Numbered from the stretch's first letter, positions 2,187 to 28,845 are shown. The stretch is DNA of 32,381 bases from Planctomycetia bacterium (GCA_005773755.1 SXHE01000867.1:1-32381); one strand, 5' to 3'. A program made the numbers and translations. The notes: generated from the letters alone by a model not told the origin.

Positions 2187-3644
2187 ATGAATCGCGCGGC
2201 TCGTAGCGTACTGCTTGTATTCGGGGTCGTTGCGACCGGCGCGATCGCGCTCGGCATCATCAGCCGGCCGGCACCAATCGAAGTGACGCTCGGCGCGCGC
2301 GAACAGTTGCCGCGCCCCAGCGCCGCCGACCTGAAGGGCCTGCCGGTCGGCATGTCGGGGTGTCTCGCGTCCGCGTGTCACGGTTCACCCGCCAACAAGA
2401 CGCTCGCGGGGAAGCTGGACGCGGACACCTGGCAAAGCTCCGGCAGCACCTGGTCCGCGGCCGACCCGCATTCCGCCGCGTACAGCCTGCTGACGGACAG
2501 CCCGCACCGCCCGGTCAAGGTCACGGCCGCGCACATCATGGCCCGCTACGCGCCGGGCACCAGTGCGACGAGCGACGCCCGGTGCGTCGCGTGCCATACG
2601 AACCCGAGCCTCGCCACCAGCGAACGAATGACCGACGCGCGCGCGACGCACCTGCGCACCGAGGGAGTGAGCTGTGAGGCGTGTCACGGCAACGCCGGCG
2701 GGTGGGTCGGCGATCACACCACCTGGAAGGGACCGCGCGCGGGGGTGTACGCCAAGACCGGCATGAACCCGCTGTACGACCTGGGCGAGCGGGCGCTGGC
2801 CTGCGCCGGCTGTCACGTCGGCGCGCCGGCCGAGAACGGCCTGCCGGTGCGCGACATGAACCACGACATGATCGCCGCCGGCCACCCGCGACTGAACTTC
2901 GACTTCGCCGAGTACCAGCGCCGGCTGCCCGCACACTGGTTGGAGAAGGACCGCACGACCAACACGCCGCGAGCGCACAGCCCCGCGAAGGTGTGGTTGG
3001 TCGGTCGCGTGGCGCACGCCGAGGCCGCGTGCAAGATGCTCGTGGACCGCGCCGAGCGCTCGAAGGACGACGCGCGCACGCCGTGGCCGGAGTTCGCCGA
3101 GTTCAACTGCGCCGCGTGTCACCACAACCTCCGCGCCGCCACCGATCCTTCACTTGAGGCACGGTGGCGGAAAGACCCGAAACTCACCGGGCATACGCTG
3201 GGTTCACCGGGATGGCAACCGATCTGGCCGATGACAGTCGCGGCCGGTATCGACCAGCCAACCCCCGACACAGCGACCCTCAAGTACGTCACGAACGCGA
3301 TGAGCGTGGCGCGACCGAAACGCGGCGAGATCGTCGCACTCGCTAAGCAGGGTTCGGGAACAATGGCGGAATTGCGCGGGAGGTTGACCAATGCGGTGCG
3401 GGTTGAAGACGTGTACCCGCTCAACCGGCTGTTTCAGTCTCCGCTGCCCCGCGTGCCGGAATGGGACAGCGCCGCGCAGCTCTTCTACGGGTACGCGGCG
3501 ATGGAGCGTGCGCGCCCGGGGCCGTCGGACCTTGTGCCGGAGTTTCGGCGTGCGCTGGGCGCGCTCCGAACCGACGACTGGCCGAACGTGAAATGGGCCG
3601 AAGTCGAGGGGGCGTTCGAGGCGATACGGAGGAAGCGCCCCTAA
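2187..3644 (+). CDS. Multiheme cytochrome c (c554-like family), exported or membrane-anchored
   Basis: N-terminal hydrophobic segment; CLASACH (CX4CH), CVACH, CEACH, CAGCH, CAACH; HDMIAAGHP motif. Confidence 0.88.
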   Translation: MNRAARSVLLVFGVVATGAIALGIISRPAPIEVTLGAREQLPRPSAADLKGLPVGMSGCLASACHGSPANKTLAGKLDADTWQSSGSTWSAADPHSAAYSLLTDSPHRPVKVTAAHIMARYAPGTSATSDARCVACHTNPSLATSERMTDARATHLRTEGVSCEACHGNAGGWVGDHTTWKGPRAGVYAKTGMNPLYDLGERALACAGCHVGAPAENGLPVRDMNHDMIAAGHPRLNFDFAEYQRRLPAHWLEKDRTTNTPRAHSPAKVWLVGRVAHAEAACKMLVDRAERSKDDARTPWPEFAEFNCAACHHNLRAATDPSLEARWRKDPKLTGHTLGSPGWQPIWPMTVAAGIDQPTPDTATLKYVTNAMSVARPKRGEIVALAKQGSGTMAELRGRLTNAVRVEDVYPLNRLFQSPLPRVPEWDSAAQLFYGYAAMERARPGPSDLVPEFRRALGALRTDDWPNVKWAEVEGAFEAIRRKRP

Positions 3645-3703
3645 TACGATTTTCGCCGAGGAAGCCCCCGCACGGATGCGACGGACTGGCCGCGAGTGTA
3701 GCC

Positions 3704-5197
3704 GTGCGTCCATTTCTCGTTATCGCGGTCGTCGTCTGCGCGAGCGCGCTGGGCGCCGCGCTCAGCCCGGCCAACCCGCGGAACCCGCAGGAACCACAAC
3801 TCGCGCCCGCCGCGCCCGATCCACAAACGCCCTACGGTGTCGGCAAAGCGCCGTTCGCGCACCGCGCCGCCACGTCGTGCGCCGCGGCCTCGTGTCACGG
3901 CGGCGGGCAGGTCGGCAAGGTCGGCAGCGAGCACTCGACGTGGGCACCGGAGGCGTTCCCCGAAGGGCAGGGTGACCCGCACACGAAGGCGTACCGCGTG
4001 CTGTTCAACAACGTCTCCGTGCGCATGGCGAAGGCGCTCAACATCGGCGAGGCGCACAAGGCCGCGCTGTGCCTGAAGTGCCACGCGGTCGATAGCGGCA
4101 AAGACCCCGAAACGCGCGACCAGAGTCTGTCCGAGGGCGTCGGCTGCGGTGCGTGCCACGGCCCCGCGGACAAGTGGATCGGGGACCATTACTCCGCCGA
4201 GTGGAAGGCGCTCAGCAACCGCGAGAAGTGGGAGAAGTACGGGTTCGTGCCGGCGGGCAACCTCGTCGCCCGCACGCTCAACTGCGCCGGCTGTCACGTC
4301 GGCGACGCCGACCGCGACGTGAACCACGACCTGTACGCCGCCGGCCACCCACGGATCACCTTCGAGGCTGCCGCGTTCCACCATCAGCCGGGCTACCGCA
4401 AGCACTGGACCGAAAAGACCCCGCAACCGGACTTCGAGGTGCGGGCGTGGATCGTCGGGCAGGTCGCGGCGCTCCGCAGCGCGACCGACCTGCTGCGCAG
4501 CCGCGCGGAGAAGGCGGACAAGCCGGACGGCATCTGGCCGGAGTTCGCCGGGTACAGTTGCTATTCGTGTCACCAGAAGATCGGCGAGGGCGCGATCCGC
4601 GGCGAAGCGAGCGCCACCACCCGCGCGCCGGGCGTTCCCGGCTGGGAGGTGTGGTCGAACACCGGCATCGGAATCGCGGCCGAGTATTGCGGCGCGGCCT
4701 ATCCCGGTGTAAGCTCACCGGACTTGAAGGAACTGAAGGCGCTCCAGAAACTGATGGAGTCGAAGCGGGCACCGAACGCGAAGGCGGTCGCAACGCAGTC
4801 GACGAAGGCGGTCGCGGAACTCGATGCGTGGCTCGCCGGGCTGCAAGCGGCCGAGGACCGCGGCGCGAAGCCGGTGCCGAAGGGGACCGCGGAGAAACTG
4901 GCGAACGCCATCGCGCGGAACGCGCTCTCGAAGGACGGCGCGAAGCTCGCGGATCACGACTGGGACGCGCTCGCCTCGAACTACTTGGGCTGTGCGGCGA
5001 TGTTCCACGCAACGGGCGGCGCGCCCGCGAACAAGTGGGGTAAAGAGCTGGACGCGGTGCGCGACAACCTGCGGTTCCCCGCGGTGAAGGGCGCGCGGTT
5101 CGACAGCCCGTTCGACTACGACCGGAACAAACTCGATCTGTTGAAGAAGAACTTCGAGCGGTTGCGGGACGCGACCGCTCCCACGGGGGGGAACTGA
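3704..5197 (+). CDS. Multiheme cytochrome c (c554-like family), paralog 2
   Basis: Probable GTG start at 3704 before signal-like VRPFLVIAVVVCASALGAALS; CAAASCH (CX4CH), CLKCH, CGACH, CAGCH, CYSCH; HDLYAAGHP. Confidence 0.88.
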   Translation: MRPFLVIAVVVCASALGAALSPANPRNPQEPQLAPAAPDPQTPYGVGKAPFAHRAATSCAAASCHGGGQVGKVGSEHSTWAPEAFPEGQGDPHTKAYRVLFNNVSVRMAKALNIGEAHKAALCLKCHAVDSGKDPETRDQSLSEGVGCGACHGPADKWIGDHYSAEWKALSNREKWEKYGFVPAGNLVARTLNCAGCHVGDADRDVNHDLYAAGHPRITFEAAAFHHQPGYRKHWTEKTPQPDFEVRAWIVGQVAALRSATDLLRSRAEKADKPDGIWPEFAGYSCYSCHQKIGEGAIRGEASATTRAPGVPGWEVWSNTGIGIAAEYCGAAYPGVSSPDLKELKALQKLMESKRAPNAKAVATQSTKAVAELDAWLAGLQAAEDRGAKPVPKGTAEKLANAIARNALSKDGAKLADHDWDALASNYLGCAAMFHATGGAPANKWGKELDAVRDNLRFPAVKGARFDSPFDYDRNKLDLLKKNFERLRDATAPTGGN

Positions 5198-6969
5198 TGT
5201 CGGCACACTCTCAGCGCGCGACCCGCGCCGCGGGCCTCACGGCCGCGTTCGCCGGTCTGGTACTCGGCCTGATGTCGGCCGGCGGGCCGGACCGCGCCGC
5301 GCACGCGCGCCAAAAGGATGACAAGAAGGACGAGTATCCGCGGCCGACGGAGAAAGAGAAGCTGAAGCAAACCCTGATCGGTGCTGCGGCATGCAAACAG
5401 TGCCACGATACGGCAGACCCGACTATGAACGACGAGTACAAGAGCACACTCGGGTACGAGTTCGTTCGGCTATGGGAAAACAAGGTGTGGGGTGTCCACG
5501 ACCTCCACTCAACTGCTTACAAGAACCTGCTCACGAACAGGTGCACCGAGGTGAAGGACGGGGGTGATAAGCCCAACACCACAGCTCAGCGGATGGAAGA
5601 CAACATGCGCCGTGCCGGTGTTGACGCACGGTACAAAAAGCAAGATTACACTGTCTCCACCGATACTCAGTGTCTCGCGTGCCACGCGAGCACAAAACAA
5701 CCAGCATCGATCGCACCGCACAAGACTTGGACCGTTGATTCGTTCAACCCGCGGGACGGGGTCGGGTGCGAGATGTGCCACGGTCACGGTTCGCTCTACC
5801 GATTCCGTCACCAAGAATCGCACATGGACAAAGCGAACGCACCGAAGGGTGCGACCTCGATCGTTGATTGGCGCGAGACTGACCCAAAGATCAAGGCGGA
5901 ATGGGGGCTGGTGAACCTGCGCGACGCGGCCGAGGCCACCAACCGCTGCGCCTCGTGCCACATCGGGAACCTGGACGAGGGCCGCTTTGTCACGCACGAC
6001 ATGTACGCTGCCGGGCACCCGCCGCTGCCGCCGCTCGACCTGATCGCTTACACCCGCGAGCAGCCGCGGCACTGGGGCCTGCCATCCGAAATGCCGTACC
6101 TGAAGACCCTCGCGGAGAAAGACCCGAAGAAGGCGAACGCGGTGTTCCACATCCGTGCCGACGAGTCGCACGTCGCCCGCCGGTTCGTCGAATCGACCGT
6201 CGCCACGCTGCACTCGTCCGCCGTCGTCACCGGCCAACTCGCCCTCGACGGCAAAGAAGACGGTCTCGACTACGCGGCGTTCGACTGCGCCTCGTGCCAC
6301 CACAACCTCAAGTACCCCAGCGACCGCCAGGACCGCGGGTACAACGCCCGGCCCGGTCGCCCGCTGTTCCGCCCGGCCACGTTCGCCCTGACCCGCGTCG
6401 TGATGGAGCACGCGGCCGAGATGCCCGGCGGCGGCGACCTCAAGGCGTCGCTCGAAGCGCTCGCGACCGTCGAGAAGAACCTCGCGGTCGCGTTCACCTC
6501 GAAGTCGCTGGGCGACCCGGCGAAGGTGCAGGCGGCCAGCGCCGAGCTGAGCAAGTGGAGCGCGGACACGCTGAAGAGGCTGAACGGCGTGAAGTACACC
6601 AACGACGAGACGAAGAAGTTGCTAGCGAAGGTGCAAGCCGCGACGCAGAAGCCGGTTGCCGACCCCGAAGTCGCGCAACTCTACACCTGGGCCTTCGAGA
6701 CGCTGGTGCTGGACCAGACCCCGCCGGCCGCGGACAAGAAGCCGCCCGCGGCGCTCGAAGAGCTGCACAAGAAGTTGAAGGACGTGGTGGTGTCGCGGCT
6801 GCGGCCGAACGCGGCGTTCTACTACGAGCAGGGCGCGAACGGCGGCATCCCCGGCCCCACCGTGGAACCGGTCGACACGCGCATCGGCAAGCGGATGGAG
6901 CTGTTCAACTCGTTCAAGAACGCCCCGTTCCGTCAGGCGTTCGGCGACGTGAAGCCGTTCGGGAAGTAG
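5197..6969 (+). CDS. Multiheme cytochrome c (c554-like family), paralog 3
   Basis: TGATG stop/start overlap with the previous gene; signal-like N-terminus; CKQCH, CLACH, CEMCH, CASCH, CASCH; HDMYAAGHP. Confidence 0.88.
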   Translation: MSAHSQRATRAAGLTAAFAGLVLGLMSAGGPDRAAHARQKDDKKDEYPRPTEKEKLKQTLIGAAACKQCHDTADPTMNDEYKSTLGYEFVRLWENKVWGVHDLHSTAYKNLLTNRCTEVKDGGDKPNTTAQRMEDNMRRAGVDARYKKQDYTVSTDTQCLACHASTKQPASIAPHKTWTVDSFNPRDGVGCEMCHGHGSLYRFRHQESHMDKANAPKGATSIVDWRETDPKIKAEWGLVNLRDAAEATNRCASCHIGNLDEGRFVTHDMYAAGHPPLPPLDLIAYTREQPRHWGLPSEMPYLKTLAEKDPKKANAVFHIRADESHVARRFVESTVATLHSSAVVTGQLALDGKEDGLDYAAFDCASCHHNLKYPSDRQDRGYNARPGRPLFRPATFALTRVVMEHAAEMPGGGDLKASLEALATVEKNLAVAFTSKSLGDPAKVQAASAELSKWSADTLKRLNGVKYTNDETKKLLAKVQAATQKPVADPEVAQLYTWAFETLVLDQTPPAADKKPPAALEELHKKLKDVVVSRLRPNAAFYYEQGANGGIPGPTVEPVDTRIGKRMELFNSFKNAPFRQAFGDVKPFGK

Positions 6970-9033: not shown

Positions 9034-9918
9034 GTGCCAGTTGTCGTCACCTGCCCGTCCTGCCGCAACGACCTCCTGGTTGCCGGGGCCGCGGAGTCGT
9101 ACCTGCGGAACTGCCCCACCTGTGGCGACCCGGTCACGGTGCCCGCGGCCGGCGCGTCGCCCGCGCCGGCCACACTCGCCGTTGCAACAACCCGGCCCGA
9201 TGCCGCACGCGGCTGGCGTCCTCCCACCGTCCGCCGATCTCAGGTGCTGATTGCCCTCGCGTGCGTCGGGTTGGTCGCGGCCACGGTCGGGAGCTGGCTG
9301 CTGTACGAACGCCAGGAGAAGCGCGAACGGGCCAACCGGGTACTCGAAGCGCAATTCGCTAACAATCGGGCGCTCGTCGCCAACCGCGAGCTGTCGTACT
9401 GGGCGAAGAAAGGGATTCCGCCCGCGTACCTCCGCTCGTTGCAGAAGCAAGCGACCGAACTCGATGAGGAGGCGAAGGCGAAGGACGCGGAACTGGACCG
9501 GCGCTGGGGCGCGGACCGGAAGGGGCTGCGCGAGCTGGGCGACGGCCGCGCGGAAGCGTGCGGTGAGTGTCTGGTGAAGAGCGCGAAGGGGGCCGAGGCC
9601 CGGCTCCACGAGAACGCGCTGGCGATGGGCAAGGAGCTCGTGCAACTCGAAGCGCGGATCGCCGCGGAGCTGCCACCGAAACCCGTCGAGGTGCCGAAGT
9701 TCGACCGGACCACCGAGAAGGGCGAGCGCGAGTTTCAGGAGTTCCAAGCGGCGTTCCCCGCGAGGCGCGAGCGTGCGCGGGCGGAGGCCGAGGCCGCGCG
9801 CGCCAAGCGGTTCCGCGCCGAATCGGGGCCGATCGTGGAAAAGTGGGTCGCGCGCACGCGCGACGAGAACCGGAAGATGATCGAAGACTTCGAGCACCCG
9901 GTTCTGGGCCGCAACTAG
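9034..9918 (+). CDS. Hypothetical membrane protein: N-terminal Zn ribbon, one TM helix, helical C-terminus
   Basis: CPSC..CPTC; hydrophobic VLIALACVGLVAATVGSWLLY; charged helical tail. Confidence 0.7.
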   Translation: MPVVVTCPSCRNDLLVAGAAESYLRNCPTCGDPVTVPAAGASPAPATLAVATTRPDAARGWRPPTVRRSQVLIALACVGLVAATVGSWLLYERQEKRERANRVLEAQFANNRALVANRELSYWAKKGIPPAYLRSLQKQATELDEEAKAKDAELDRRWGADRKGLRELGDGRAEACGECLVKSAKGAEARLHENALAMGKELVQLEARIAAELPPKPVEVPKFDRTTEKGEREFQEFQAAFPARRERARAEAEAARAKRFRAESGPIVEKWVARTRDENRKMIEDFEHPVLGRN

Positions 9919-10004
9919 CTCTGCTGGCGCTCCTGAATCCACGCCCGCGAGTCACGAACCAACCCGGCAGCCTGTTGGGACACGGTTTGTTCGCGCCGGG
10001 GGTC

Positions 10005-10032
10005 TTGCCGGGCAAGTCCGGGCTGTTAGAAT
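10005..10032 (+). promoter_or_regulatory. Sigma70-type promoter for tRNA-Asp
   Basis: TTGCCG (10005-10010), 16-nt spacer, TG-extended TAGAAT (10027-10032). Confidence 0.6.
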
Positions 10033-10058
10033 CTGCTATGACGGAATCGCCGTGCGTT

Positions 10059-10132
<74 letters not shown>

Positions 10133-10311
10133 CTCATATTTTTCAAGCACTTGCGGCGGGTCTTGACCGCCGGGCACCGGCCATAATATGCGGCCGGTGC
10201 CTCATAAGTGCCTCCTGTGTCAGTCGTGTCGCACCGTGTGGCAAACCGGGGTCGGATGACCCGCCCCGGTCCCAACCACCACGTGTCCCGTCAAGGGAAA
10301 GCGACACGCTC

Positions 10312-11562
10312 ATGGCAAATCTCGGCAAAAAGGGTGACGTTTACTGCGTCCGGTTCCGGTTCGGTGGCAAGGAGTACAAGAAGTCCCTCAAAACGCGGGA
10401 CGAGTCTGCCGCCGGCGCTGCCCTGCACCTGATCGAACTCACCCTCCACCGGCTCCACACCGGACAGCTTCACGTCCCCGCACTCGTCGATCCCGGCGAT
10501 TTCGTCGTCAGCGGTGGCACTCTACTGGCGCCCGTCGAACGCCCGCAGGCGGCCGAAACGCCGCCACCCCCTCCCTCCACCTGCGAACTGATCGACCTCT
10601 ACACCGCGGCGCAGAAAAATCTGCTCGCCCCGTCGTACCTGTCCAGCCAGGCCATGCACCTGAGGCACCTGACGAGGCACCTCGGGCGGCGGGCGGACGG
10701 GCCGTGCGACGCGGTCACGTTCCGGGACCTCGACGGCTACCTCCAGGCGCGACTCGCCGAGCGGCACCCCAACACCGCCGAGCGCGAGCGGATCACGCTG
10801 CTGCAGTTCTACAAGTGGGTCGTGCGGCAGCAGTATCTGGGCGCGTCCCCGGCCGCCGGCCTGGCGCCGATCAAGGGGGGCGAGGACCGACCGCCGTTCC
10901 GCACCTCGGCAGAAGTGGAGCGGATCATCGAGCGCGGCGGCCTCGACGACGAGCAACGGCTCGACCTGTGGGAGTGCCTGTACCTGAGCCCGCCCGAGAT
11001 CGCCGGCCTGCTCGCCACGGTCAAGACGAACGCCGCGACCGACTACGGGTACCTTCTGCACGCGATCCCGGCGTACACCGGCATGCGGCGGGGCGAGGTG
11101 CTCCGACTGCGGTGGGTCGACGTGGACCTGGACGAGGGTTACGTGTCGGCCCGCAGCCGCAAGCAGTCGCGGCGCAAGCGGGAGACGATCCGCCGGATCA
11201 CGCTCCACCCAGAGTTGAAGGCTGATCTCCTCGCGTGGCGGGCAACCCGGGTGCGTGGGCAGTGCGTGATCTGCGAGCCGGACGGGGACGGGCCGATCAG
11301 CAACGACCGCGCCAACCGGGTGTTCTGGCAGCCGATGCGAAAAACCACGTGGTGCCTGGACAACGGCCGCGACCTGTTCAAGGTCGGCTTCCACACGTAC
11401 CGGCACTCGTTCGCGTCGAACCTGGCGGCGGCCGGGGTGGATCAGCGGGTGATCGACGAGTTCATGGGCCACACGACCGAGGCGATGCGCAAGCGGTACC
11501 GGCACCTGTTCCCCTCGAACAAGAAGTCCGCGATCGAGAGTTTCTCGCTGGCGGTCACCTGA
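10312..11562 (+). CDS. int: Tyrosine recombinase/integrase, 416 aa
   Basis: Catalytic motifs YTGMRRGEV (R), HTYRHSFAS (HxxR), MGH..RY (H, Y); N-terminal arm-binding-like beta segment; adjacent to tRNA. Confidence 0.95.
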   Translation: MANLGKKGDVYCVRFRFGGKEYKKSLKTRDESAAGAALHLIELTLHRLHTGQLHVPALVDPGDFVVSGGTLLAPVERPQAAETPPPPPSTCELIDLYTAAQKNLLAPSYLSSQAMHLRHLTRHLGRRADGPCDAVTFRDLDGYLQARLAERHPNTAERERITLLQFYKWVVRQQYLGASPAAGLAPIKGGEDRPPFRTSAEVERIIERGGLDDEQRLDLWECLYLSPPEIAGLLATVKTNAATDYGYLLHAIPAYTGMRRGEVLRLRWVDVDLDEGYVSARSRKQSRRKRETIRRITLHPELKADLLAWRATRVRGQCVICEPDGDGPISNDRANRVFWQPMRKTTWCLDNGRDLFKVGFHTYRHSFASNLAAAGVDQRVIDEFMGHTTEAMRKRYRHLFPSNKKSAIESFSLAVT

Positions 11563-11651
11563 GAGGCGACTCACACTGTTGCCGTACGGGGCGCGCCGCG
11601 GGCTGGTTCCTCCGCGGTGCGCCCGTCTCGTGAGTCGCAGGGGAGCAATTC

Positions 11652-13967
11652 GTGGCGAACGAAGGCGTGCGAGAGTGGGACGGGACCGCGGTCGTGCCGG
11701 GCCAGGTACTGATCCTGTTGGAGGTGCCCGCCACTTCGGCCTCATCCGCCGCACGTATAGTTGCCGGCTCGGGGGGCGGAACGCCTGTTACGTTTTGTGC
11801 GTCTCTCCTGCCCGCCTTCCTGCTCGTTCACCGCCATGCATTTTTCGTCTCCCCCGATAGCGCACCCCTCGTGACCGCGGCGGCGCTCTTCCCCGACGCC
11901 GCGCAGCCCGAAGCGACGATCCTGACGACCGTCCTCGAAGCGGATTGTTGGGTCGATCTCGGCCTTCTCGATCTGCTCCTTCGCACGGTAACCAGCAACT
12001 CCGTGTGTCGGCCTCGTGCCGAGGAGGAATTGGTCGGAGAAGCCCGGCTGAATGCGGCCGGTGCGGGCGAAAACCGGTCCCAGATCCCGACCAATTCGTA
12101 CCAAAATCTGCCGTTTCGGGACCGGATTGCCAACCTGCTCGCCGTGGCGGATCAGTTGGCGGAGCGGGCAGAGGCACTCGCAGACGAAGTCGAACGGCCG
12201 CACGAGGCGGAGTACCGCCTCCGCTCGCTCAGCCCGGACGCGGCACTCACGAACGCCGGAACGGTCCACAGTTCACTGGCCGCTCATGCGGCCGACTACC
12301 TCCGCCGACGGACGTTGGGGGCCGCGCACCCTCCGGCGAGCGGAGGTTCCGACAGTCTCACCGGCCCGGTCGAAGGGTTACCGAACCAGGTGTTAAACGG
12401 AGCGACCTTCTGTGGAATCGGTACGGCGCTAAGGGGCACGCTGGCGCTGGTGGCGATGCCGTGCCTGAGTCATGACGGCAGCCGAATCGTGAGCGCGCGG
12501 CTGGACGATCTTCGCGCCGCCGCCGAGGATCGATACAGAGATGCGTCGAGAGAACTGCGCCGGCATCCCGAAGCTCATACCGCCTTCCGGTGGGAGGGTG
12601 AGACCGTCTCTCGTGATCGGAATCGCGTGGACACAACCGAAGCGCTCCGCGGTTGGCTCCGCGTCGCCGGGAAACGTCTCGTCGATCGGTGGGGCTTGCC
12701 CGTCGCGATCCCGGAAACGGCGACCGGCGAATTGACACAGAACGCTGAGCACTGGGGTTGTTGGGCGGCATGCGATGGCGCTCTCTGGGCGTGGCGCGAA
12801 TTGGTCCGCATGGCCGAGGTGATCCGGTTCGCCACGGCGACTGCGACGATCGCACCGCGGTACGATGTCGCCCCCCGCCTGCGATCGATGGAACCGAACC
12901 TGGATGTGTACCGGCGGCTCGGCATACCGGTGCTGCGCCCCCACTCGAAGCACGTGTTCCTCGCCGGCCGCGTTCGGGATCTCAGGCTCCGCTGCTTCGC
13001 CGCTGTCGGACTCAGTCGCGGTTACTTTCATCGTGGGACCAGTCGCCTCGCCGGGTATTTCTTCGGGGCGGACGAACCGGTGGCCGCGATCGCCGCGGAA
13101 CTCTACGCCGGCGACGCAGTACGGGAAGCCAGAGCCGCTTGCCCGCCGCCCGCCGTGCAGGGAGAGGACGAAGACGGGGACAAGGAGGACGGCGTCGATC
13201 TCGGGTCCGTCCGTGACGCCGCGCTGGAGCGGTACGCGGCCCTCCAACAAACCCAACCGCTGTTGGCGGAGTCGTGGCAGCGCCGCGCCGAGGGCCTGTT
13301 GAATGCGGCGATTGTCGGCATCCCCGACGCCCGGCTGGGAACCTTCTTGGCGTGCGAATACCACGAACCGAACTTCGATTCTTTGGACGCCGTGCGAATG
13401 CTGAACCTGCTCGCGTCCGACGTCGTCTACGAACTCCAGCCGTGTCTGGAGGACCGGTCGGCGGACACGATCTGGGCGCGACTCGGGCGATCGTCCCAGG
13501 ACGAGTTGTACCGGCGGCTCTCCTCGGAACACCCGGACACGTTCGCCGCATGGGCGCGGAACCGTGTTTCGGGTGCGGCGGGCGTGGAAGGCTTGAACTT
13601 GGGTTCCGATGCCTACCCCACCCCAGACTCGGGGGGGGCGCACCCGACGCGCGGCCGCCGGCCTGACCTGTATTTGTCCCGCGGGCGGACGCTGGGCGGC
13701 CGGTTCACCGCGATGGCGAGCCGCCCCCTCGTCCTCCAGCAGGAGGTTCTACTCACCGCCGACGAGGTGATGCTCGAAGTCGCCCACGCGCTGCAAGCCC
13801 GCGGCTACAAATCGCTCGGCATTGCTGGCGAGGAGTTCCTGGTCGAAGTTCCCGATCGCGGTGCCCAGGCGGCACAGGCCGCCGTCGAGGAAGCGTGCGC
13901 GGCGGGTGCCGCCCGACTCCTCGGCAATCTCGCTTCCGTCTCGGTCGATCCTTGTGAGTTCTGGTGA
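11652..13967 (+). CDS. Highly diverged family-A DNA polymerase-like protein, apparently catalytically inactive, 771 aa
   Basis: GGGAG RBS then GTG. PolA-like segments occur in the correct order: PRLRSMEPNL, HVFLAGRVRDLRLR (motif A), RRAEGLLNAAIVG (motif B), GRTLGGRF, QQEVLLTADEVM, IAGEEFLVEVP (motif C). Catalytic residues are replaced. Confidence 0.65.
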   Translation: MANEGVREWDGTAVVPGQVLILLEVPATSASSAARIVAGSGGGTPVTFCASLLPAFLLVHRHAFFVSPDSAPLVTAAALFPDAAQPEATILTTVLEADCWVDLGLLDLLLRTVTSNSVCRPRAEEELVGEARLNAAGAGENRSQIPTNSYQNLPFRDRIANLLAVADQLAERAEALADEVERPHEAEYRLRSLSPDAALTNAGTVHSSLAAHAADYLRRRTLGAAHPPASGGSDSLTGPVEGLPNQVLNGATFCGIGTALRGTLALVAMPCLSHDGSRIVSARLDDLRAAAEDRYRDASRELRRHPEAHTAFRWEGETVSRDRNRVDTTEALRGWLRVAGKRLVDRWGLPVAIPETATGELTQNAEHWGCWAACDGALWAWRELVRMAEVIRFATATATIAPRYDVAPRLRSMEPNLDVYRRLGIPVLRPHSKHVFLAGRVRDLRLRCFAAVGLSRGYFHRGTSRLAGYFFGADEPVAAIAAELYAGDAVREARAACPPPAVQGEDEDGDKEDGVDLGSVRDAALERYAALQQTQPLLAESWQRRAEGLLNAAIVGIPDARLGTFLACEYHEPNFDSLDAVRMLNLLASDVVYELQPCLEDRSADTIWARLGRSSQDELYRRLSSEHPDTFAAWARNRVSGAAGVEGLNLGSDAYPTPDSGGAHPTRGRRPDLYLSRGRTLGGRFTAMASRPLVLQQEVLLTADEVMLEVAHALQARGYKSLGIAGEEFLVEVPDRGAQAAQAAVEEACAAGAARLLGNLASVSVDPCEFW

Positions 13968-14038
13968 ACGCCGGCTTACGCATCTCGGGCGGATGCCGGC
14001 GCATGTTGCGCCGACATGTCGTGGCTAAGAATTGCCCC

Positions 14039-14067
14039 TTGTCCGGTCACCCGAACCGGAATATGAT
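14039..14067 (+). promoter_or_regulatory. Sigma70-type promoter for the leader and xis operon
   Basis: TTGTCC (14039-14044), 17-nt spacer, TATGAT (14062-14067); predicted TSS ~14074, next to the first stem; palindrome CGACATGTCG at 14012-14021 upstream. Confidence 0.7.
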
Positions 14068-14073
14068 CTTCTC

Positions 14074-14258
14074 GGGATGAGGGGTGAGGAACTCCTCCGA
14101 CGGATCACGCACCGCTAACGCGGTTCACCGCTCCGACCTCATCCGACGGACTGCCCGGCCGCTTCGGCCAACGGCATCCCAATCAGACCCAGCAGACACC
14201 GGGTTACAAAGCCCTCAGACGGCTTTGTTGGGATGTCGTTTCCACTTTCAGTAGTCCG
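14074..14258 (+). ncRNA. Putative structured RNA or 5' leader with two multibranched domains
   Basis: Nested stems 14075-82/14137-44, 14083-87/14125-29, 14111-15/14120-24; 14147-54/14251-58, 14157-61/14165-69, 14170-81/14229-40, 14186-90/14201-05, 14206-13/14221-28; no credible ORF. Confidence 0.55.
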
Positions 14259-14371
14259 AACCTTCCACACACACATTCCGCAGTAACTCCACCGTCCGCT
14301 GGGCTGGTCCCGCGTTCACGCGTTCCGGGGCGTGCATCGGGTCTCAGACTCCCGGATCAGAAGGAGTTTCG

Positions 14372-14761
14372 ATGGTCATCCCGACCGTCCGACCGGCCCG
14401 ACCCGGTGGCGGGCCGGCGCCCCCCGATCCCCTCCTCGCCCGGCTCGTGGCGATGGAGTCGCAGATCGCCGACCTCTGCGGCCACCTGCCAACCGTCCTG
14501 CAGAAACTCGACGCCCTCAGCGAACTCCTCGGCAGTCGCCGGAAAGAGAGCTACGTCGTCGAGGAAGTCGCGGAGTTGACCGGTCGGAGCGAGTACACGA
14601 TCCGGCGCTGGATCACTGAAGGGAAGCTCAAGGCCGTTCGGATCACCGAGGGCGGCCCGCGCGGGCGCCTCCTTATTCCGCGGAGCGAACTCGACCGCCT
14701 CGTGGCCTGCGGACGCGGCGCTGAAGTACCGGCCACGGCCCTCAACCAGGAGGGCGTCTGA
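14372..14761 (+). CDS. Excisionase-like HTH (HTH_17/MerR-like) DNA-binding protein
   Basis: AAGGAG RBS; YVVEEVAELTGRSEYTIRRWITEGKLKA..GRLLIPRSEL; N-terminal coiled segment. Confidence 0.85.
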   Translation: MVIPTVRPARPGGGPAPPDPLLARLVAMESQIADLCGHLPTVLQKLDALSELLGSRRKESYVVEEVAELTGRSEYTIRRWITEGKLKAVRITEGGPRGRLLIPRSELDRLVACGRGAEVPATALNQEGV

Positions 14762-15711
14762 TGGGCCGCGGACCGTACCAAGTCGAAGACTTCGTCGGGC
14801 AGAAGCGGGCGCTCCGAGCCGCCCTGCGACTCCAAGACGGGGCCACGATGCGCGGGGAGCCAGCCCCGCACATGTTATTCGAGGGCCCTTCGGGGTGCGG
14901 GAAGAGTATGGCCGCGCTCACCCTGGGCGTCCGGGCGGGTACGACGGTTATCAAGTTCAACGGGAAAACTTCGGTCGAAGAGATCGCCGGGAAACTGGCC
15001 GCGATGAAAGCGTGTGATATCGCGTTTTTCGATGAATGTCACAACCTTCCTGGTGACCCACAGGAACTCCTGTTCACGGTCATCGACGCCAATGAACTCC
15101 CCGCGGCGCTCGTGCCCGGCGCAAAGCCGGACGAACCCGTGACCGTGGCGCCGATCACACTGATCTTCGCGACCGACCGTCCGGGGAAGCTCCTCAACGC
15201 TCTCCAGAAGCGGATCCCGTTGAAGGTGGAGTTCGAACCGTACGCGCTTGACGAGATGAAAGAGATTGTGGCCCGGATCGGGACGCGGCGCGGGATCTTG
15301 CTCAGCGCCCAAGCCGCGGGCCAACTCGCCCAGGTCTGCCACGGCCTCCCTCGGCGGGCGGAGCACCACGTCAACAACCTTCGGCTGACGTTCGCCGACT
15401 CCGAGCAAAGACAGCTCGGGATCGACGACGTCCGCGTCTACCTGGACGAGATCGGCATGGACGCGGACGGCTTGGACCGGTCCGCGAGAAAGTACCTGAA
15501 GTTTCTCCGGCGGAACGAGAGCGCTTCGGCCGAGGCCATCGCGGCGTTCCTCGGGACGGACATCGACAACCTGAAGAACCAGATCGAGCAGCCGCTCCGG
15601 TTCCGCGGCCTTGTCACCGTCGGCTCCGGCGGCCGCACCCTGACGGAAAAGGGAACGGAATGGGCGGAGCAACGCAAGGCCCGACAAACAAAGGGGGACA
15701 ACCGTGGCTAA
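14761..15711 (+). CDS. ruvB: RuvB-like AAA+ ATPase (Holliday junction branch-migration motor homolog)
   Basis: EDFVGQ, Walker A GPSGCGKS, Walker B FFDECH, LIFATDR, Arg finger LQKRI, sensor II GLPRRA, C-terminal wHTH GLDRSARKYL..IEQPL..GRTLT; TGATG overlap with xis. Confidence 0.85.
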   Translation: MGRGPYQVEDFVGQKRALRAALRLQDGATMRGEPAPHMLFEGPSGCGKSMAALTLGVRAGTTVIKFNGKTSVEEIAGKLAAMKACDIAFFDECHNLPGDPQELLFTVIDANELPAALVPGAKPDEPVTVAPITLIFATDRPGKLLNALQKRIPLKVEFEPYALDEMKEIVARIGTRRGILLSAQAAGQLAQVCHGLPRRAEHHVNNLRLTFADSEQRQLGIDDVRVYLDEIGMDADGLDRSARKYLKFLRRNESASAEAIAAFLGTDIDNLKNQIEQPLRFRGLVTVGSGGRTLTEKGTEWAEQRKARQTKGDNRG

Positions 15712-16735
15712 GACCAAGAACACCGTCATCACCGTCCCGATCGGGCGGCCCCTCGTGGCGGTCCTGGACGTCTGCTTCGCCGCCGGGCAGACCCCACTGC
15801 TCGCCGGGGGCACCGGCGTCGGCAAGAGCACGCAACTTGAAGACTACGCCCGTTCCCAGGACTGGGAATACCGGCAGATGGATCTGTCTCTCATGGAGCC
15901 GCCCGATCTGGTCGGAATGCCGAAACTGGACGGCAAAGTGACACGCTACCTGCCGCCGGTGGTTCTACCAACCGTGGATGACGGCGCGGGGTTACTCGCG
16001 CTGGAAGAGATCAACCGGGCCCCGGAGTACATGCGGGCACCCTGCCTGCAACTCCTCACGGCCCGGTGCCTCAACGACTACCGCCTGCCGACAACTTGGA
16101 AGCTGGTGGCGGCGATCAACCCGGCCGAGGACGGCTACGCCGCGGACGAGCTCGACCCGGCACTGGAGTCGAGGTTCGTGCGCATCAACGTGGTCGCCAG
16201 TCCGGACGAGTGGGCCGAGTGGGCACGAGAGCACAAGGTCGACCGGCGGGTGATCGAGTACGTCCTGTCTGACCCGGGCGTGTTCGATGCCCCCACGAGT
16301 AACCCGAGGGCGTGGACCGCGGTCGCGAAGTTGCTCAAGGAGGGTGAAAAACTCGGCACCCCTTCGGGTCTGCTCCAGGCGGTGACCGCCGGGTGCGTCG
16401 GGGTCGAGCGGGCCGCATCGTTCCTGCGGTTCATCAAGGACCGGGTCAAGCCGCTGAACGCCGATCAGATCCTACGGGGGTACAAGAAGGTCCGCTCGGC
16501 CCTGACGGCGTGGGTGACCGAGGGCAAACTCGATCTGGTTCAGGGGTCGGTGCTGAAGGTCAAGCAGCGGCTTCAGTCGCGTACCGAGTACACCGCGGCC
16601 CGGGAATACACGGCTGCGTGGAAGAACCTCGGCCGGCTCCTGGCTGACTTGCCGGGCGATCTGCGCGAGGACATGGAGGAGTTCTTCCGGGAGCACGATT
16701 ACGACGTCCCCGCCCCTGTCGGGGGGACGAAATGA
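15704..16735 (+). CDS. MoxR-like (AAA_5) ATPase
   Basis: Walker A GGTGVGKS, MEPPDLVGMP, Walker B LALEEINRA, AAINP, LDPALESRF, NPRAW. Confidence 0.88.
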   Translation: MAKTKNTVITVPIGRPLVAVLDVCFAAGQTPLLAGGTGVGKSTQLEDYARSQDWEYRQMDLSLMEPPDLVGMPKLDGKVTRYLPPVVLPTVDDGAGLLALEEINRAPEYMRAPCLQLLTARCLNDYRLPTTWKLVAAINPAEDGYAADELDPALESRFVRINVVASPDEWAEWAREHKVDRRVIEYVLSDPGVFDAPTSNPRAWTAVAKLLKEGEKLGTPSGLLQAVTAGCVGVERAASFLRFIKDRVKPLNADQILRGYKKVRSALTAWVTEGKLDLVQGSVLKVKQRLQSRTEYTAAREYTAAWKNLGRLLADLPGDLREDMEEFFREHDYDVPAPVGGTK

Positions 16736-17952
16736 GAACCGGTTGCAGTTCCGACCAGATCGCCGAGGGGGCGGTCCGGGTGGCGATCGTACGGCTCGCC
16801 GCCGCGTACCCGTTCCACGCCCGCGTACTGGAGAAGTTCCGACTCGTCCCTTCGCCCGCCGTCGAGACTATGGGGGTCGCCGCGACCGCCGGAGGCGTGT
16901 TGCTGTTCTACAACCCGGAGTTCGTCCGCGGACTGACCGCGGACGTCCGGGGCGGTGTTCTACTGCACGAAGTTCACCACGTCGTACTCGGGCATCTCGG
17001 CCTGGATCCGGCCGACTTCCCCGATCAGTGGGCGTTCATCGTCGCGTGCGAGGTGTCGGTCAACGAGTTCGTCACGTTGCCGCTTCCCGACGGGGTGATC
17101 CGCCTCGAACAGTTCCCCGATCTGCCGCCGATGGAATCGACGCTCGATCGGTACCGCCGGCTCGCGCGAGTGGCACCGAAGGCGCGCTTCACGATCAGCG
17201 GGGTTGGAGGGATGGCCCACCCGGGCGCCGCGGGCGGCAGCTCCGGCAACGTGATCGACAACCACTCGGTCTGGAAAACTGGTGGGGATGATGCAGACGC
17301 TGTCCGAGAGGCGGTCGCGGCACTCCTGAACGAGGCCGCCGTGGAAGCCGGCGGAGTGCCGTCTGAACTCCAGGCCGCCGTGAAGGCGATCGGCCGGGGC
17401 ACCGCGAGTCCGGGTCACATCCTGGCCGGCGGCGCCGACGGCACCCTGGACTGGCGACGGCTCCTCCGCCGGTACATCGGCCGACTGACTCGCCCGCAAG
17501 GCAGCTACTCGCGCCCGCCGCGCCGGTTCCCGCGCTTGATCGGTGTGGTACCCGGCCGGCTCCGACGGCCACGCGACTCGGCCGTGGTGGCGATCCTGGA
17601 TACTTCGGGCAGCATCGACGAGCCGATCATCGAAGCCATCGACGGTGAACTTCAGCGGCTCGCCCGAACCCGGGAGGTCGTCGTCGTTGAGGCGGACTGC
17701 GAAGTTCACCGCACCTACCGCTACGCCGGCCGACTGGAACGCGTTCACGGTCGGGGCGGGACCGACTTCTGCCCGGCACTCGACCGACGGTTCCTGGCGC
17801 CGCTAAAGCCCGAGGTGGTGATCTACTTCACCGACGGGTTCGGCCCGGCGCCGGAGGTGCCCCCGCCCTGGCCGCTCGTCTGGTGTCTGGTGCCCGGGGG
17901 CGAGCCGCCGGCCGAGTACGGCCGGGTGATCCGAATGGACGGGTCGGAGTGA
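16732..17952 (+). CDS. DUF2201-type putative metallopeptidase with a C-terminal VWA-like domain
   Basis: TMGV..YNPEF, HEVHH (HExxH), DNHSVW, LDWRRLL, MIDAS DTSGS, GRGGTDF, YFTDG; ATGA overlap with the MoxR gene. Confidence 0.88.
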   Translation: MRTGCSSDQIAEGAVRVAIVRLAAAYPFHARVLEKFRLVPSPAVETMGVAATAGGVLLFYNPEFVRGLTADVRGGVLLHEVHHVVLGHLGLDPADFPDQWAFIVACEVSVNEFVTLPLPDGVIRLEQFPDLPPMESTLDRYRRLARVAPKARFTISGVGGMAHPGAAGGSSGNVIDNHSVWKTGGDDADAVREAVAALLNEAAVEAGGVPSELQAAVKAIGRGTASPGHILAGGADGTLDWRRLLRRYIGRLTRPQGSYSRPPRRFPRLIGVVPGRLRRPRDSAVVAILDTSGSIDEPIIEAIDGELQRLARTREVVVVEADCEVHRTYRYAGRLERVHGRGGTDFCPALDRRFLAPLKPEVVIYFTDGFGPAPEVPPPWPLVWCLVPGGEPPAEYGRVIRMDGSE

Positions 17953-18079: not shown

Positions 18080-18226
18080 ATGTGCCATTGTACACGTGTT
18101 CGACCGGGGCGCAACAGCCCAGGGTGGCAACTCCCTGACGATCCGGCCGGTCCAGTGCGTTTTGGAAACACACGCCAGCCGGCCGCTTTCACACACGCCC
18201 TCCGTCACGGGGAGGGCGGGTCGTGA
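18080..18226 (+). CDS. Possible 48-aa leader peptide coupled to the helicase gene
   Basis: GAGGAGG at 18063-18069, ATG 18080; its TGA overlaps the helicase GTG (GTGA 18223-18226). Confidence 0.35.
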   Translation: MCHCTRVRPGRNSPGWQLPDDPAGPVRFGNTRQPAAFTHALRHGEGGS

Positions 18227-20172
18227 AACTGACCATCGCCGTTGGGAACATCACCAGAAAGGTGATTTCGCCCGACCTCACGGCCGAATACGCGACCAAG
18301 CTCACCGATGAGATCGCCGCCGAGCCCGACGGTCCGGTCGTGCTGAAGGTCCACAGCTTCGCCGCTTGGCCCGACAGCGCCCGCGCCACGTTCTTCGAGT
18401 TCTGGGCGGCGGTGAAGCAGTCGCGGGCCGTCACGGTCAGGGTCAAGAAAGCGACATACCCGACGCCGCTGGACTTCGTGCTGGCGCAACTCGGGGACGA
18501 ACCATCGCAGGACGAGGTCACCGACTGGTTGACCGAGGCAGCGGGCGCCGTCGCTGCGTGTTACTCACAGGGCGAACGTGCCGCGTGCGCGCAGGCCGTC
18601 GCGCAGCACCTTCAGAAAGTCGGCTTCGGCGGAATCACCGAGCCCGAGTTCCTCGCCCAAGTGGCGGAAGCTGCGGGGGAGACTGACTCCGGCTCGAAGG
18701 GCCAGGGGCCGAACCCCACCCTGCTCGCGAACGACTTCGTCGAACGGCACCGGGCGACGATCACGGTCGGGCCGCTCGCGGCGGACGCGCGGACGCTCCA
18801 CTTCTTCGGCGGAACCTTCTACGAGTGGGACCGCGCCTGGAAGGAGATCAAGCCCGAAGAGATGCGGGCGCTCGTTACCCGCGACCTTCAGGACCACTCC
18901 GGGGTGCCGCGGGTGACCACCCAACTCGTCGCCAACGTGCTGCTGAACCTGCAGGGGCTCTGCGTCGTCGGCGGGGCGGATCAGCCGCTGCCTGTTTACG
19001 TCGAGGAGTACGGCCCGCCGACCCGGAGCACCCGGCGAAAGGTGCTGGTACTCCGGAACGGCATGATCGATCTCGAAGCGATCGCGGCCGGTTCGGAGTC
19101 AAAACTCCTCCCGCACGACCCGCGGTGGTTCGGATCCTCGGTCCTGCCGTTCGACTTCGACCCGGGGGCGACGTGTCCGGAGTTCAAGGTGTTCCTCCGC
19201 CAGGTACTGGAGCGCGACCCGGAGACGAAAAAGCCGCTCACCAAGGGCGACCGCCGGATGAAACTTCTCCAGGAGTGGTTCGGCTACTCGCTGCTCCCCG
19301 ACGGGCGCTTCCAGAAGTTCCTCCTCATGGTCGGCGACGGGAGCAACGGGAAGGGGGTGATCCAAAACCTGTGGCTCCAGATGCTCGGGAAGGAGAACGT
19401 CGCCCACGTCAGCCTCGACCAGTTGAGCGAGCGGTTCGCGCTCCAGCCGCTCTTGGGGAAGATGGCCAACATCTGCGGCGACCTGTGCGAGATCGACGCG
19501 GTCGCCGAGGGGGTGCTGAAGCGCCTCACCGGCGAGGACAACATCATGGTCGACCGGAAGAACCAGGCTCCGGTCACCATGGCCCCGACGATCAAGTTGA
19601 TCTTCGGTACCAACTCCCTGCCGCGGTTCAGCGACAAGAGCCGCGGTGTGTGGCGGCGGCTCGTGGCCATGCCGTTCCGGGTGGTCGTCCCCGACGCCGA
19701 GCAGGACGAACTGCTCGCCAAGAAGCTCGCCGCCGAGTTGCCCGGCATTCTGAACTGGGCACTGCGGGGGCTGCGGCGGCTGCTTCAGCAGGAGCAGTTC
19801 AGTTCCTGTGTGGTGTGCGCCGAGGCGGCGAAGCGGCACCAACTCGACTGCGACCCGGTCTCGCAGTTCGTGGACGAGAACGGGATCCACCCGCCCCCGG
19901 CCGGCGGCCCTCCTCGGCGGATCCTGAAGGACGAACTGTACAAGAAGTACCGCGAGTGGTGCGAGGGCGGCGGCTACCTGCCGCTGTCGAAGAACCGGTT
20001 CAACCGTCAGGTGGGTCGGCTCGCGGGCGTCCAGGAGTACCGCTCGCCCCAGGCCGAGCCCGACGGCAAGCGGCCCTATTTCTGGACCGGAATTGGAAAG
20101 CCGCTCCCGCTGCCCGCCGGCGCAGACGGCACCGAAGGAGATGAGGACGACCTCACAGAGGAGGCGGCGTGA
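18223..20172 (+). CDS. D5/P4-family SF3 helicase (phage/plasmid primase P4 C-terminal type) with C-terminal wHTH
   Basis: LRNGMIDL, LLPHDP, FDFDPGATCPEF, LQEWFGYSL, Walker A GDGSNGKG, LKRLTGED, TNSLP, WRRL, DPVSQF, LYKKYREWC. Confidence 0.9.
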   Translation: MKLTIAVGNITRKVISPDLTAEYATKLTDEIAAEPDGPVVLKVHSFAAWPDSARATFFEFWAAVKQSRAVTVRVKKATYPTPLDFVLAQLGDEPSQDEVTDWLTEAAGAVAACYSQGERAACAQAVAQHLQKVGFGGITEPEFLAQVAEAAGETDSGSKGQGPNPTLLANDFVERHRATITVGPLAADARTLHFFGGTFYEWDRAWKEIKPEEMRALVTRDLQDHSGVPRVTTQLVANVLLNLQGLCVVGGADQPLPVYVEEYGPPTRSTRRKVLVLRNGMIDLEAIAAGSESKLLPHDPRWFGSSVLPFDFDPGATCPEFKVFLRQVLERDPETKKPLTKGDRRMKLLQEWFGYSLLPDGRFQKFLLMVGDGSNGKGVIQNLWLQMLGKENVAHVSLDQLSERFALQPLLGKMANICGDLCEIDAVAEGVLKRLTGEDNIMVDRKNQAPVTMAPTIKLIFGTNSLPRFSDKSRGVWRRLVAMPFRVVVPDAEQDELLAKKLAAELPGILNWALRGLRRLLQQEQFSSCVVCAEAAKRHQLDCDPVSQFVDENGIHPPPAGGPPRRILKDELYKKYREWCEGGGYLPLSKNRFNRQVGRLAGVQEYRSPQAEPDGKRPYFWTGIGKPLPLPAGADGTEGDEDDLTEEAA

Positions 20173-20577: not shown

Positions 20578-21627
20578 ATGAACGTTCTCAATCCGCCCCT
20601 TTTTGAGGCTCTCACGCGGGAATTCGGGGAGGTCCGGGTCACCGACCAAGGCGCGGCCATGATTGCACGCCACGTCCGGTATCCGGGCGGTCAGGTGCGT
20701 CTCGAGGTGGGTTCGGCCGGGGAGTACTACCGGGTCTGCTGCGCTTTCTGTAACGACACCCGCTTCCGGCTCTGGATCAACCACCGCTGGGGCGTTCCGG
20801 ACCCGAAGACCGGGAGCCGGCACCGGTGGGCAGCCATCTGTTACAACGAGAACTGTCTTGCGCGAGAAGAGAACCGCGTCGAACTGATTCGTCGCGTCTC
20901 GTGGTACGACCGCACGGCCGGTGCCGGGCGGGTGAAAATCCTGCCCGGAAGAGTGACCGAACCGGGCACGCCGAAGCCGCTCCCCCGCGACTTCCTCCGA
21001 CTCAGCGAACTCGATAAGGGGCACCCGGCGCGGGGATACGTTCGGAGCCGCGGCTTCGTTCCCGATCTGATCTCGCAGCGCTGGGGCGTCGGGTACTCCG
21101 AGGCGGGACCGTTCCCCGGTGCGGGAATCGGCCGCCTCGTCATCCCCATCCACCGCGTCACGGAGGACGGCGCGAGGGTGTGGGGTTGGCAGGCCCGAAG
21201 ACTGAATGAGAACGAACACTTGCCCAAATACTTCACCGCGCCCGGCCTCCAGAAGACCGCGTTCCTGTACGGCGCCGAGCGGATCACCGACGGCACCGGC
21301 CCCGTCGTGGTCTGTGAGGGGCCGATCGACGTGTGGCGCTTCGAGCGGGATGCCGTCGCGCTGCTCGGGAATCACATTTCCGACTCCCAGGTGCGCCTCC
21401 TGTGCCGCCTCGCAACCGGTCGCCCGCTCGTCGTGGCCCTCGACGGGGAGGCCCGGGACGAGGCCGAAGTCGTCGTTACCCGACTCCGCCGGGCGCGCGA
21501 GTCCTCGATCCTTCGCCCCGATCCGTCGCCGGTGTTACTAATGCCCTTCCCAGCCGGGCGCGACCCGGCGGACTGTTCACATGAAGAACTGAAACGGCGG
21601 ATGCGCCGACTGCTGCAGACGACGTGA
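20578..21627 (+). CDS. TOPRIM DNA primase-like protein with an N-terminal Zn-binding domain
   Basis: GAGGAG RBS; CAFCND..CYNENC; YVRSRG, RLVIPI, GWQAR, PKY, FLYG, VCEGPID, ALDGE, RDPAD. Confidence 0.85.
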   Translation: MNVLNPPLFEALTREFGEVRVTDQGAAMIARHVRYPGGQVRLEVGSAGEYYRVCCAFCNDTRFRLWINHRWGVPDPKTGSRHRWAAICYNENCLAREENRVELIRRVSWYDRTAGAGRVKILPGRVTEPGTPKPLPRDFLRLSELDKGHPARGYVRSRGFVPDLISQRWGVGYSEAGPFPGAGIGRLVIPIHRVTEDGARVWGWQARRLNENEHLPKYFTAPGLQKTAFLYGAERITDGTGPVVVCEGPIDVWRFERDAVALLGNHISDSQVRLLCRLATGRPLVVALDGEARDEAEVVVTRLRRARESSILRPDPSPVLLMPFPAGRDPADCSHEELKRRMRRLLQTT

Positions 21628-25562: not shown

Positions 25563-26103
25563 CGTTTGGTCGCGGGCCCGATCGTATTCGCGCGGATTCG
25601 CGGCACCGGCGGTGAACGTTGCACGACGTCGGGCTACCGTTTGCAAGCTGCTCGGTGCCGACCGGAGGCGACAGGCTGCTCCTGAACACGCTCGCCGCGG
25701 ACAGGAACCCACAAATCCGCGAAGCAGTCGGCCGGTGCCTCACGCATTGTCCCGCAGCGGGGCCGTGAGCGTAACTTGTGGCAGTCGTCCAGCGAAGGAG
25801 CGATGCACCAAGGGACGCCGACCAACGACGGACCAGAAGCGGGTTGTCTCGCCGGACGCGCTGTCCGGCGAGACGCGAATTGTGGGTTTGAGGACGCAAG
25901 TGTCGGGGTCGGTTCCGTGTTCCCACCGGACCGCCGTTGGCCCGGCGTCGAACCCGACGTGGCGGCCAGTCGCTTGAGGATGGCGGCTCGGTATCGATAA
26001 TACGGTCTCGGTACGCGAACGGGCGTTTGCCGACTGGAAATGAAAGCATGCGGGATTGATTCGTCCCGCTCCCTCGGCGTCGAGCACTCAACCGGGTAGG
26101 ACG

Positions 26104-28708: not shown

Positions 28709-28845
28709 CGGGGCACCGTGCGACCGGGAACACGCGTCGTCGAACCGGCCGCACGGTGAGACCTTCGAGTGCAACATCCGCGGCGATCAGACCGTGTGGA
28801 GTGAAGATCGGCGACGCGACCGAGATCCACATTCCAGGAGTCACC

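Follow-up and report, generated by a model that had tools for sequence, protein, structure and literature searches.

Polymerase homologs with altered or missing activities are already known from bacteria and their mobile elements, among them the exonuclease-dead PolAs (APEX), the truncated but active CCPol and the polymerase-dead Y- and X-family proteins (parts of PMC12926913, PMC10201439 and PMC10061031). APEX/PolA2 of Actinobacteria is an accessory, chromosomal PolA with a dead 3'-5' exonuclease and a polymerase site that is kept and active (parts of PMC10201439 and PMC12926913). The CCPol-MP primase of SCCmec and the Pol-SSB pairs show that PolA can be repurposed on integrated elements; CCPol is catalytically active and exonuclease-truncated, and its gene shares a helicase operon with that of a partner SSB (parts of PMC10061031 and PMC7581432). 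ImuB, inactive PolY and non-canonical PolX proteins are retained without polymerase activity, but they belong to other families, either work alongside an active polymerase or have kept a nuclease, and are found outside int-xis modules (part of PMC12926913). The family-B polymerase gp43 of T4 and RB69 is active and moonlights on its own mRNA, binding a regulatory RNA operator hairpin through its palm and repressing translation (part of PMC3014915). P4-like satellites are integrated at tRNA genes; their integrase gene is followed, all in the same direction, by a promoter with a structured leader, a gene for an excisionase-type HTH protein, and primase/helicase genes. In P4, the leader RNA CI can confer immunity alone (part of PMC4825925). 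No polymerase-dead group of family A is described in parts of the 2023 PolA reclassification and the 2026 bacterial polymerase survey, whose supplements could list one, nor in the titles and abstracts listed by literature searches, a scope outside which most subscription journals lie.

The locus described here lies in a window of 32,381 nucleotides from a Planctomycetia bacterium. Its features are the following.

10059-10133, + strand: tRNA-Asp(GTC), the integration target
10091-10133, + strand: att core, the 3' part of tRNA-Asp, with further copies on three contigs elsewhere in the genome
10312-11562, + strand: tyrosine integrase (int) of a distinct clade linked to the dead polymerase
11639-11645, + strand: Shine-Dalgarno-like sequence AGGGGAG, ahead of the GTG of the dead polymerase gene
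11652-13967, + strand: homolog of family-A DNA polymerases, 771 aa, catalytically dead as judged by profile, fold and motif alignment; exonuclease remnant at about residues 5-195, thumb at 291-398, palm and fingers at 399-771
14012-14021, no strand assigned: palindrome CGACATGTCG, some 20 nt ahead of the -35 box; a weak lead as a possible operator
14039-14067, + strand: predicted sigma70-like promoter, TTGTCC-17-TATGAT, of the xis-replication operon
14074-14371, + strand: structured untranslated leader, its first stem pairing 14075-14082 with 14137-14144
14372-14761, + strand: excisionase-family HTH protein (xis; HTH_17, TIGR01764)
14761-17952, + strand: genes for a RuvB-like ATPase, an AAA_5 ATPase and a metallopeptidase-VWA protein (DUF2201)
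18223-20172, + strand: D5-like helicase, predicted replication module
20578-21627, + strand: primase-like gene, predicted replication module

The polymerase gene lies between int and xis, in agreement with the preliminary description, and behind a tRNA gene. A tyrosine integrase at a tRNA with an att core, an excisionase/AlpA-type HTH gene and primase-helicase genes are traits of P4- and PICI-type satellites that the window element shows. Gram-negative PICIs likewise have int, promoter/leader, excisionase-type HTH and primase/helicase genes in this order and in one direction. The window element appears to differ in its size of more than 22 kb, with its right end off the contig, satellites being under about 20 kb, and differs in the 2.3-kb dead polymerase that follows int. 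Among the window ORFs scanned, which stop short of that right end, none was named as a capsid-hijacking, packaging or capsid-size gene. The slot had been compared with the place where PICIs keep their repressor. That analogy is loose. In SaPIs, the repressor is transcribed away from xis, whereas int, dead polymerase and xis all point the same way here, unlike the stl/str switch.

A ParB gene lies downstream of the primase-like gene. The RuvB-like, AAA_5 and metallopeptidase-VWA genes, also present in locus L032, are under purifying selection (dN/dS 0.17-0.26). Further cargo comprises an unnamed 455-aa protein with a weak C-terminal HTH (26056-27423; a 53% homolog occurs in the active-polymerase element L042), an unnamed 331-aa protein (27713-28708), a DUF123 protein (28705-30129) and an LRR protein (30273-31490). 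Three adjacent multiheme cytochrome c genes occupy the host side (2187-6969). The att core is found four times in the genome, in the window (within 10091-10170) and on contigs C689, C616 and C662, and there are no informative repeats within 9900-14800. C689 ends in the core plus the left end of the window element; therefore a second junction (attP or tandem island) exists, and its source is an excised circle, a set of tandem islands or a population that is mixed.

The reading frame is open for 771 codons from its GTG, the chance of meeting no stop being about 3e-8 at local composition; both the uninterrupted frame and its ribosome-binding site are thus as first described. Taken alone, the sequence has no match in Pfam at E<=0.05, in PHROGs, NCBIfam or PADLOC at E<=0.001, or among PDB sequences. 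A phmmer search of 1.84 billion representatives found 236 related proteins or clusters at E<=0.001, many of them full length, of which the best 150 were listed, chosen by similarity only. The relatives are labelled Planctomycetota in public records; a PolA Pfam match is absent for 66 of them, and one of 11 matched PRK14975 below the cut-off. In the ESM Atlas, PolA clusters appeared at 0.78 only, which is a lead. Pattern scans gave one locus in metagenome contigs, none and then one in genome contigs, and none in two viral scans, and tblastn with one relative each against plasmids and against phages gave no match; two alignments were too divergent to serve as search queries. An assembly artefact was rejected, given independent relatives at 90, 77 and 53% and a contig from another study that matches int, polymerase, leader and xis and diverges near the end of xis. 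The dead polymerases are a real pseudo-polymerase family without earlier annotation, and profile-based surveys would miss them because the family escapes Pfam, PHROGs and NCBIfam.

Homology becomes visible with profiles and models. The profile built from 95 relatives aligns with Aquifex Pol I (8jrb; E 4.9e-11) so that motifs 2, A, B and C coincide, and a profile of 36 active relatives matches 96 of 103 dead proteins, the 771-aa protein at 2e-6. AlphaFold2 on the 95-relative alignment gave a model with pLDDT 90 and pTM 0.90, for which the PDB matches listed by Foldseek were all family-A polymerases, the best being 8jrb (E 3.5e-10, TM 0.44). VIA-align superposed 468 residues of the same model on the apicoplast polymerase 5dkt (Z 22.6, rmsd 5.5) and gave Z 22.1 to Klenow (1kfd), with the PolA fold running across residues 1-771. 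The predicted structure confirms a Klenow-type family-A homolog with exonuclease and palm/fingers/thumb, so the full-length family-A polymerase proposed from the bare sequence holds. The closest enzymes are the active PolA3-like/Aquificae-like PolAs of mobile elements (PF00476, phrog_17; 8jrb, 5dkt), which share the exo-thumb-palm-fingers fold and the collinear motifs and also lack the 5' nuclease. The dead protein differs from them in having lost the catalytic residues and in having moved from behind a primase-helicase to the int-xis slot.

The motif columns were read from an alignment with 36 intact relatives and carry what we take to be the corresponding Klenow residue names. The motif matches first made by eye hold in this alignment. 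Motif A Asp and Glu are replaced by Arg440 (12969) and Arg445 (12984), motif B Lys in the O helix by Glu547 (13290), motif 6 Gln by Leu700, and motif C His-Asp-Glu by Gly726-Glu727-Glu728 (Gly726-Glu727 at 13827-13832). At the Asp columns of the DEDDy exonuclease, where 31 of the 36 active proteins have Asp, stand Leu22, Leu73 and Arg158, so that the N-terminus is indeed an exonuclease remnant without its acids. Among the 83 full-length phmmer relatives covering both motif columns, motif A Asp is present in three (36 of 36 in active proteins), motif B Lys in five and motif C His in two. None keeps the full site, and the sole one with both aspartates misses the other site residues. Over 16 tested columns, the dead proteins (n=103) keep 0-6 residues, the active ones (n=36) 11-16 and the 771-aa protein 3. 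The alignment confirms the loss of the Asp of motif A, the Lys of motif B, the His-Asp of motif C and the acids of the exonuclease, and the protein is accordingly predicted to be catalytically dead. This lost polymerase site sets it apart from APEX/PolA2 and CCPol, by motifs and not by a tree.

Of 252 genomes of the family, 43 had a match to the profile, as did 38 of the 401 sampled from the class and 4 of the 401 sampled from the phylum; active paralogues and weak matches to host Pol I are counted in these figures. The proteins fall into two classes, the dead ones and 36 with intact motifs that sit behind primase/helicase genes, a split that is partly by definition because locus labels were taken from the motifs themselves. 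In a FastTree phylogeny of 93 rows, a single branch parts dead from active (support 100). A quick IQ-TREE run with no mixture model, on 48 rows (20 dead, 19 active, 9 outgroups) and rooted on host Pol I, gave the dead clade support 100 and a stem of 0.83 and nested it inside active element-borne PolAs, as sister to those of L101/L102 (99, 99); the exact sister is less certain than the nesting because branches are long. These sequence trees show one origin for the dead polymerases, from active PolAs of related planctomycete elements. The intact-motif PolAs of planctomycete islands (L034, L042-L058, L080-L083, L093-L107), behind their primase-helicases, form a large group at tRNA-Val, Ala, Lys, Pro, Ser, Met and Arg and at tmRNA, a class of self-replicating islands. 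At L104:14488-17052, in an element that also carries a dead polymerase, a primase-like domain is fused to an intact-motif PolA domain.

Across elements, the gene keeps its place. In the 21 dead loci with DNA, int is directly upstream in 16 and separated by an IS or two genes in 2, and its position in the other 3 is not judgeable at contig ends; xis is next downstream, sometimes behind an IS, in 15 of the 17 with enough sequence (exceptions L060 and L090). The proposed int-xis synteny is thereby upheld, with counts taken over related sequences and not independent events, and with L179, very divergent, as a tentative member. No copy was seen elsewhere, two loci not being judgeable. Where all three genes are present they are co-directional, and the tRNA targets include Asp, Gln and Leu. 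Seen from the integrase side, where clade members were taken as at least 45% identical to the window integrase and only the top loci per search were fetched, 25 loci were found, 4 of them at a contig edge. A dead polymerase accompanies 17 of the 21 clade integrases with downstream sequence (15 within 1.5 kb, 2 farther), and 4, L047 among them, have none in the available sequence. Outgroup integrases at 32-37% identity have none within 1.5 kb (0 of 28). The genes past xis vary, from D5 plus primase to a DUF927-type helicase, an RT or a second, intact PolA. This fixed slot with changing replication genes suggests a module for the control of integration and excision rather than a part of the replisome or turnover cargo. 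L100 and L104 each have, beside the dead polymerase, another PolA whose motifs are intact, so the dead gene is more than a spent replicase. Reverse transcriptases (RVT_1/phrog_1423) lie a few genes past xis in four dead-polymerase elements (L037:4578-6221, L039:15416-16174, L089:5744-6988, L091:13986-15599), others having primase/helicase genes there; they may be group II introns or replication modules. L041 is a mosaic with a window-type integrase, a first xis and DUF5131, followed by an L037-type dead polymerase, leader, xis and cargo.

The sequence just past the dead gene is also recurrent. Of 15 dead loci, 12 have the pattern TTG-N16/18-TANNNT no farther than 150 nt past the stop (0.81 expected), compared with none of 25 active ones; the pattern was chosen after viewing the data, and loci that carry insertions (four) or lie at contig ends (two) were excluded. 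The palindrome CGACATGTCG, picked after the fact, occurs in only about four independent lineages. It is under-represented in the genome (20 seen, 56 expected); a common host site was rejected, the palindrome-plus-promoter pattern occurring once in the genome, at the window locus. The leader is conserved in L001 and L032. Its folding is modest, with z -2.7 for the first 110 nt in the window, +0.3 to -3.3 across loci and -1.8 for the whole stop-to-xis gap, and an alignment of three related copies has 56 consensus pairs with 5 two-sided changes. Rfam at E<=0.5 returned tRNA only, with no match for the leader and no C4/CI. A promoter followed by a long, hairpin-enclosing stem before xis is seen in the window (14039-14371), L001, L032, L037 and L041, and likewise in L047, L089, L092, L100 and L104, with little sequence shared between elements; leaders of the window clade have an alternative CCCAGC / GCTGGG pairing. 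These leaders possibly form an unlisted class of CI/C4-like immunity RNAs.

What the dead polymerase does is a more tentative matter. The reading that we favour, with reservations, is that it may bind nucleic acid and regulate the xis-replication promoter or its structured leader. In keeping with this, no gene for a separate repressor is found between int and xis in the window. At former catalytic or neighbouring cleft positions, basic residues occupy columns 440 (53 of 103 dead proteins), 445 (48 of 103), 421 (82 of 102) and 411 (58 of 101); active relatives have none there (0 of 36) and the background is 12%. The thumb is the sole region equally conserved in dead and active proteins (0.42 vs 0.44). 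Because the cleft gained basic residues and the thumb is conserved, DNA or RNA binding is the likeliest remaining property. The protein would be co-transcribed with int, as overlapping or close stops and starts at several loci suggest. With Arg/Lys in place of the metal-binding acids, in about half of the family, and with its thumb, it could grip DNA or RNA without metal. It would act on the promoter region or on the leader just after its gene, and would help keep the xis-replication operon off, so that the element stays integrated. The fast divergence of the dead polymerases, about 20% identical between elements whose integrases share 40-86% and Xis proteins 28-92%, could track the unrelated leaders, as in immunity repressors and their operators. 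The gp43 protein offers a model for such binding, which for the dead polymerase is a presumption. A stronger version, in which a whole Klenow fold was domesticated once as an immunity repressor, its cleft acids turned to arginines, reading its own leader RNA or promoter and diverging into many immunity groups across Planctomycetia, is speculative and rather unlikely.

Several observations weaken the regulator reading. Sister element L047 shares the att core and has the promoter, the leader hairpin and xis, together with an integrase that is 84% identical, but it lacks a dead polymerase, so the gene is not obligatory. An obligatory repressor, an obligatory Int cofactor and an obligatory partner of the leader RNA were rejected on this ground; of the regulator and RNA-partner idea in the preliminary description, only a non-obligatory role is left standing. 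Immunity can also come from a leader RNA alone, as with CI of P4. The protein is acidic (net charge -21; family median -8 vs +2), and the primer-template contact columns Thr356, Arg409, Arg686, Asn696, Gln700 and His726 are mostly not conserved. Polymerase distances follow those of xis (Mantel 0.57) somewhat more closely than those of int (0.43) over 13 loci, one int being assigned across contigs; this favours the regulator reading, but the correlation with xis may be plain linkage because the dead polymerase of L041 moved with all downstream genes.

An alternative that we consider possible but unlikely is a decoy or sensor, which would jam or sense the primase-helicase or primer ends of competing active-PolA elements or phages. 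The nearest active clade, L101/L102, sits behind a 1040-aa primase-helicase, and none of the dead-polymerase elements examined has this module. Quick divergence with a retained fold is typical of conflict genes, the conserved thumb could serve as a protein-binding surface, and the gene is dispensable in L047. Integrase-adjacent defence hotspots are known in P4-like satellites and prophages (part of PMC9122126), but such hotspots turn over fast, whereas the same gene recurs in 17 of the 21 clade members here. The protein has no effector domain, none of 9 family members matches the 2023 PADLOC library at E<=0.001, and the intact-motif PolA beside the dead one in L100 and L104 also speaks against a decoy.

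Less probable still is an accessory to recombination. It would bind Int, Xis, att DNA, or intermediates that are nicked or branched, and would determine in which direction, or how efficiently, integration and excision proceed. The linkage to one integrase clade, the placement between both recombination genes and an int stop that overlaps or adjoins the polymerase start in L036, L038, L063 and L037 would fit. Int, however, carries its own arm-binding, core-binding and catalytic domains in the window and stays under purifying selection where the dead gene is absent (window-L047 dN/dS 0.17), and the two proteins do not keep pace: window and L001 integrases are 96% identical over 146 codons and the polymerases 54%, and for L041 the figures are 81% and 21%. 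A non-catalytic replication factor, acting in processivity or as a scaffold for the primase, helicase or primase-polymerase of the element as ImuB does in the mutasome, appears quite improbable. The ancestor was a replication enzyme adjoining primase-helicase genes, and dead Y-family proteins serve as scaffolds (part of PMC12926913), but the dead gene is no member of the predicted replication operon, lying upstream of its promoter, and the set of replication genes varies between elements.

That the gene is a functionless, slowly decaying relic is very improbable and largely refuted. Nei-Gojobori dN/dS, a crude measure for GC-rich, partly saturated DNA, is 0.29-0.75 in seven overlapping pairs of dead polymerases, with all bootstrap intervals below 1 (window with L001 0.40, with L032 0.36), compared with 0.16-0.37 in five active pairs, 0.17-0.26 in six neighbouring genes and 0.15-0.66 in five integrase pairs. 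Selection is relaxed but purifying; constraint peaks in the thumb, in the palm and around the O helix, and the linker shows none. A relic would be in line with the values of 0.61-0.75 in the tRNA-Gln subgroup, with the GC3 of 0.77 (neighbours 0.82-0.89) and with the 5 broken copies among 21 (L033, L035, L039, L090, L100), but the integrase is broken too beside 3 of these 5. Against decay also stand the long stem and the deep radiation after loss of the site, the many full-length clusters, and a buried core that is kept while lost site positions are filled by many different residues. One old dead clade, dN/dS below 1 and constant gene order support exaptation over decay, as first argued from the frame without stop or frameshift; of the refuting results foreseen in the preliminary description, only the broken copies turned up. 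An active enzyme with a rebuilt, non-canonical site is hardly credible. Acids recurring at the motif C columns 727 (48 of 99) and 728 (71 of 100) and at 416 (43 of 100) would fit it, but the palm shows no new invariant acid or His, and many different residues fill the lost positions. The family is very probably functional and non-catalytic.

The dead polymerases represent a clean case of an enzyme turned pseudoenzyme with the living ancestor clade at hand. Their testable targets are few: the promoter, the leader, Int, Xis and the ancestral primase-helicase. If the protein regulates or blocks, it would add a new device to those by which mobile elements exert control or wage conflict and would, in addition, be a natural nucleic-acid-binding Klenow scaffold.
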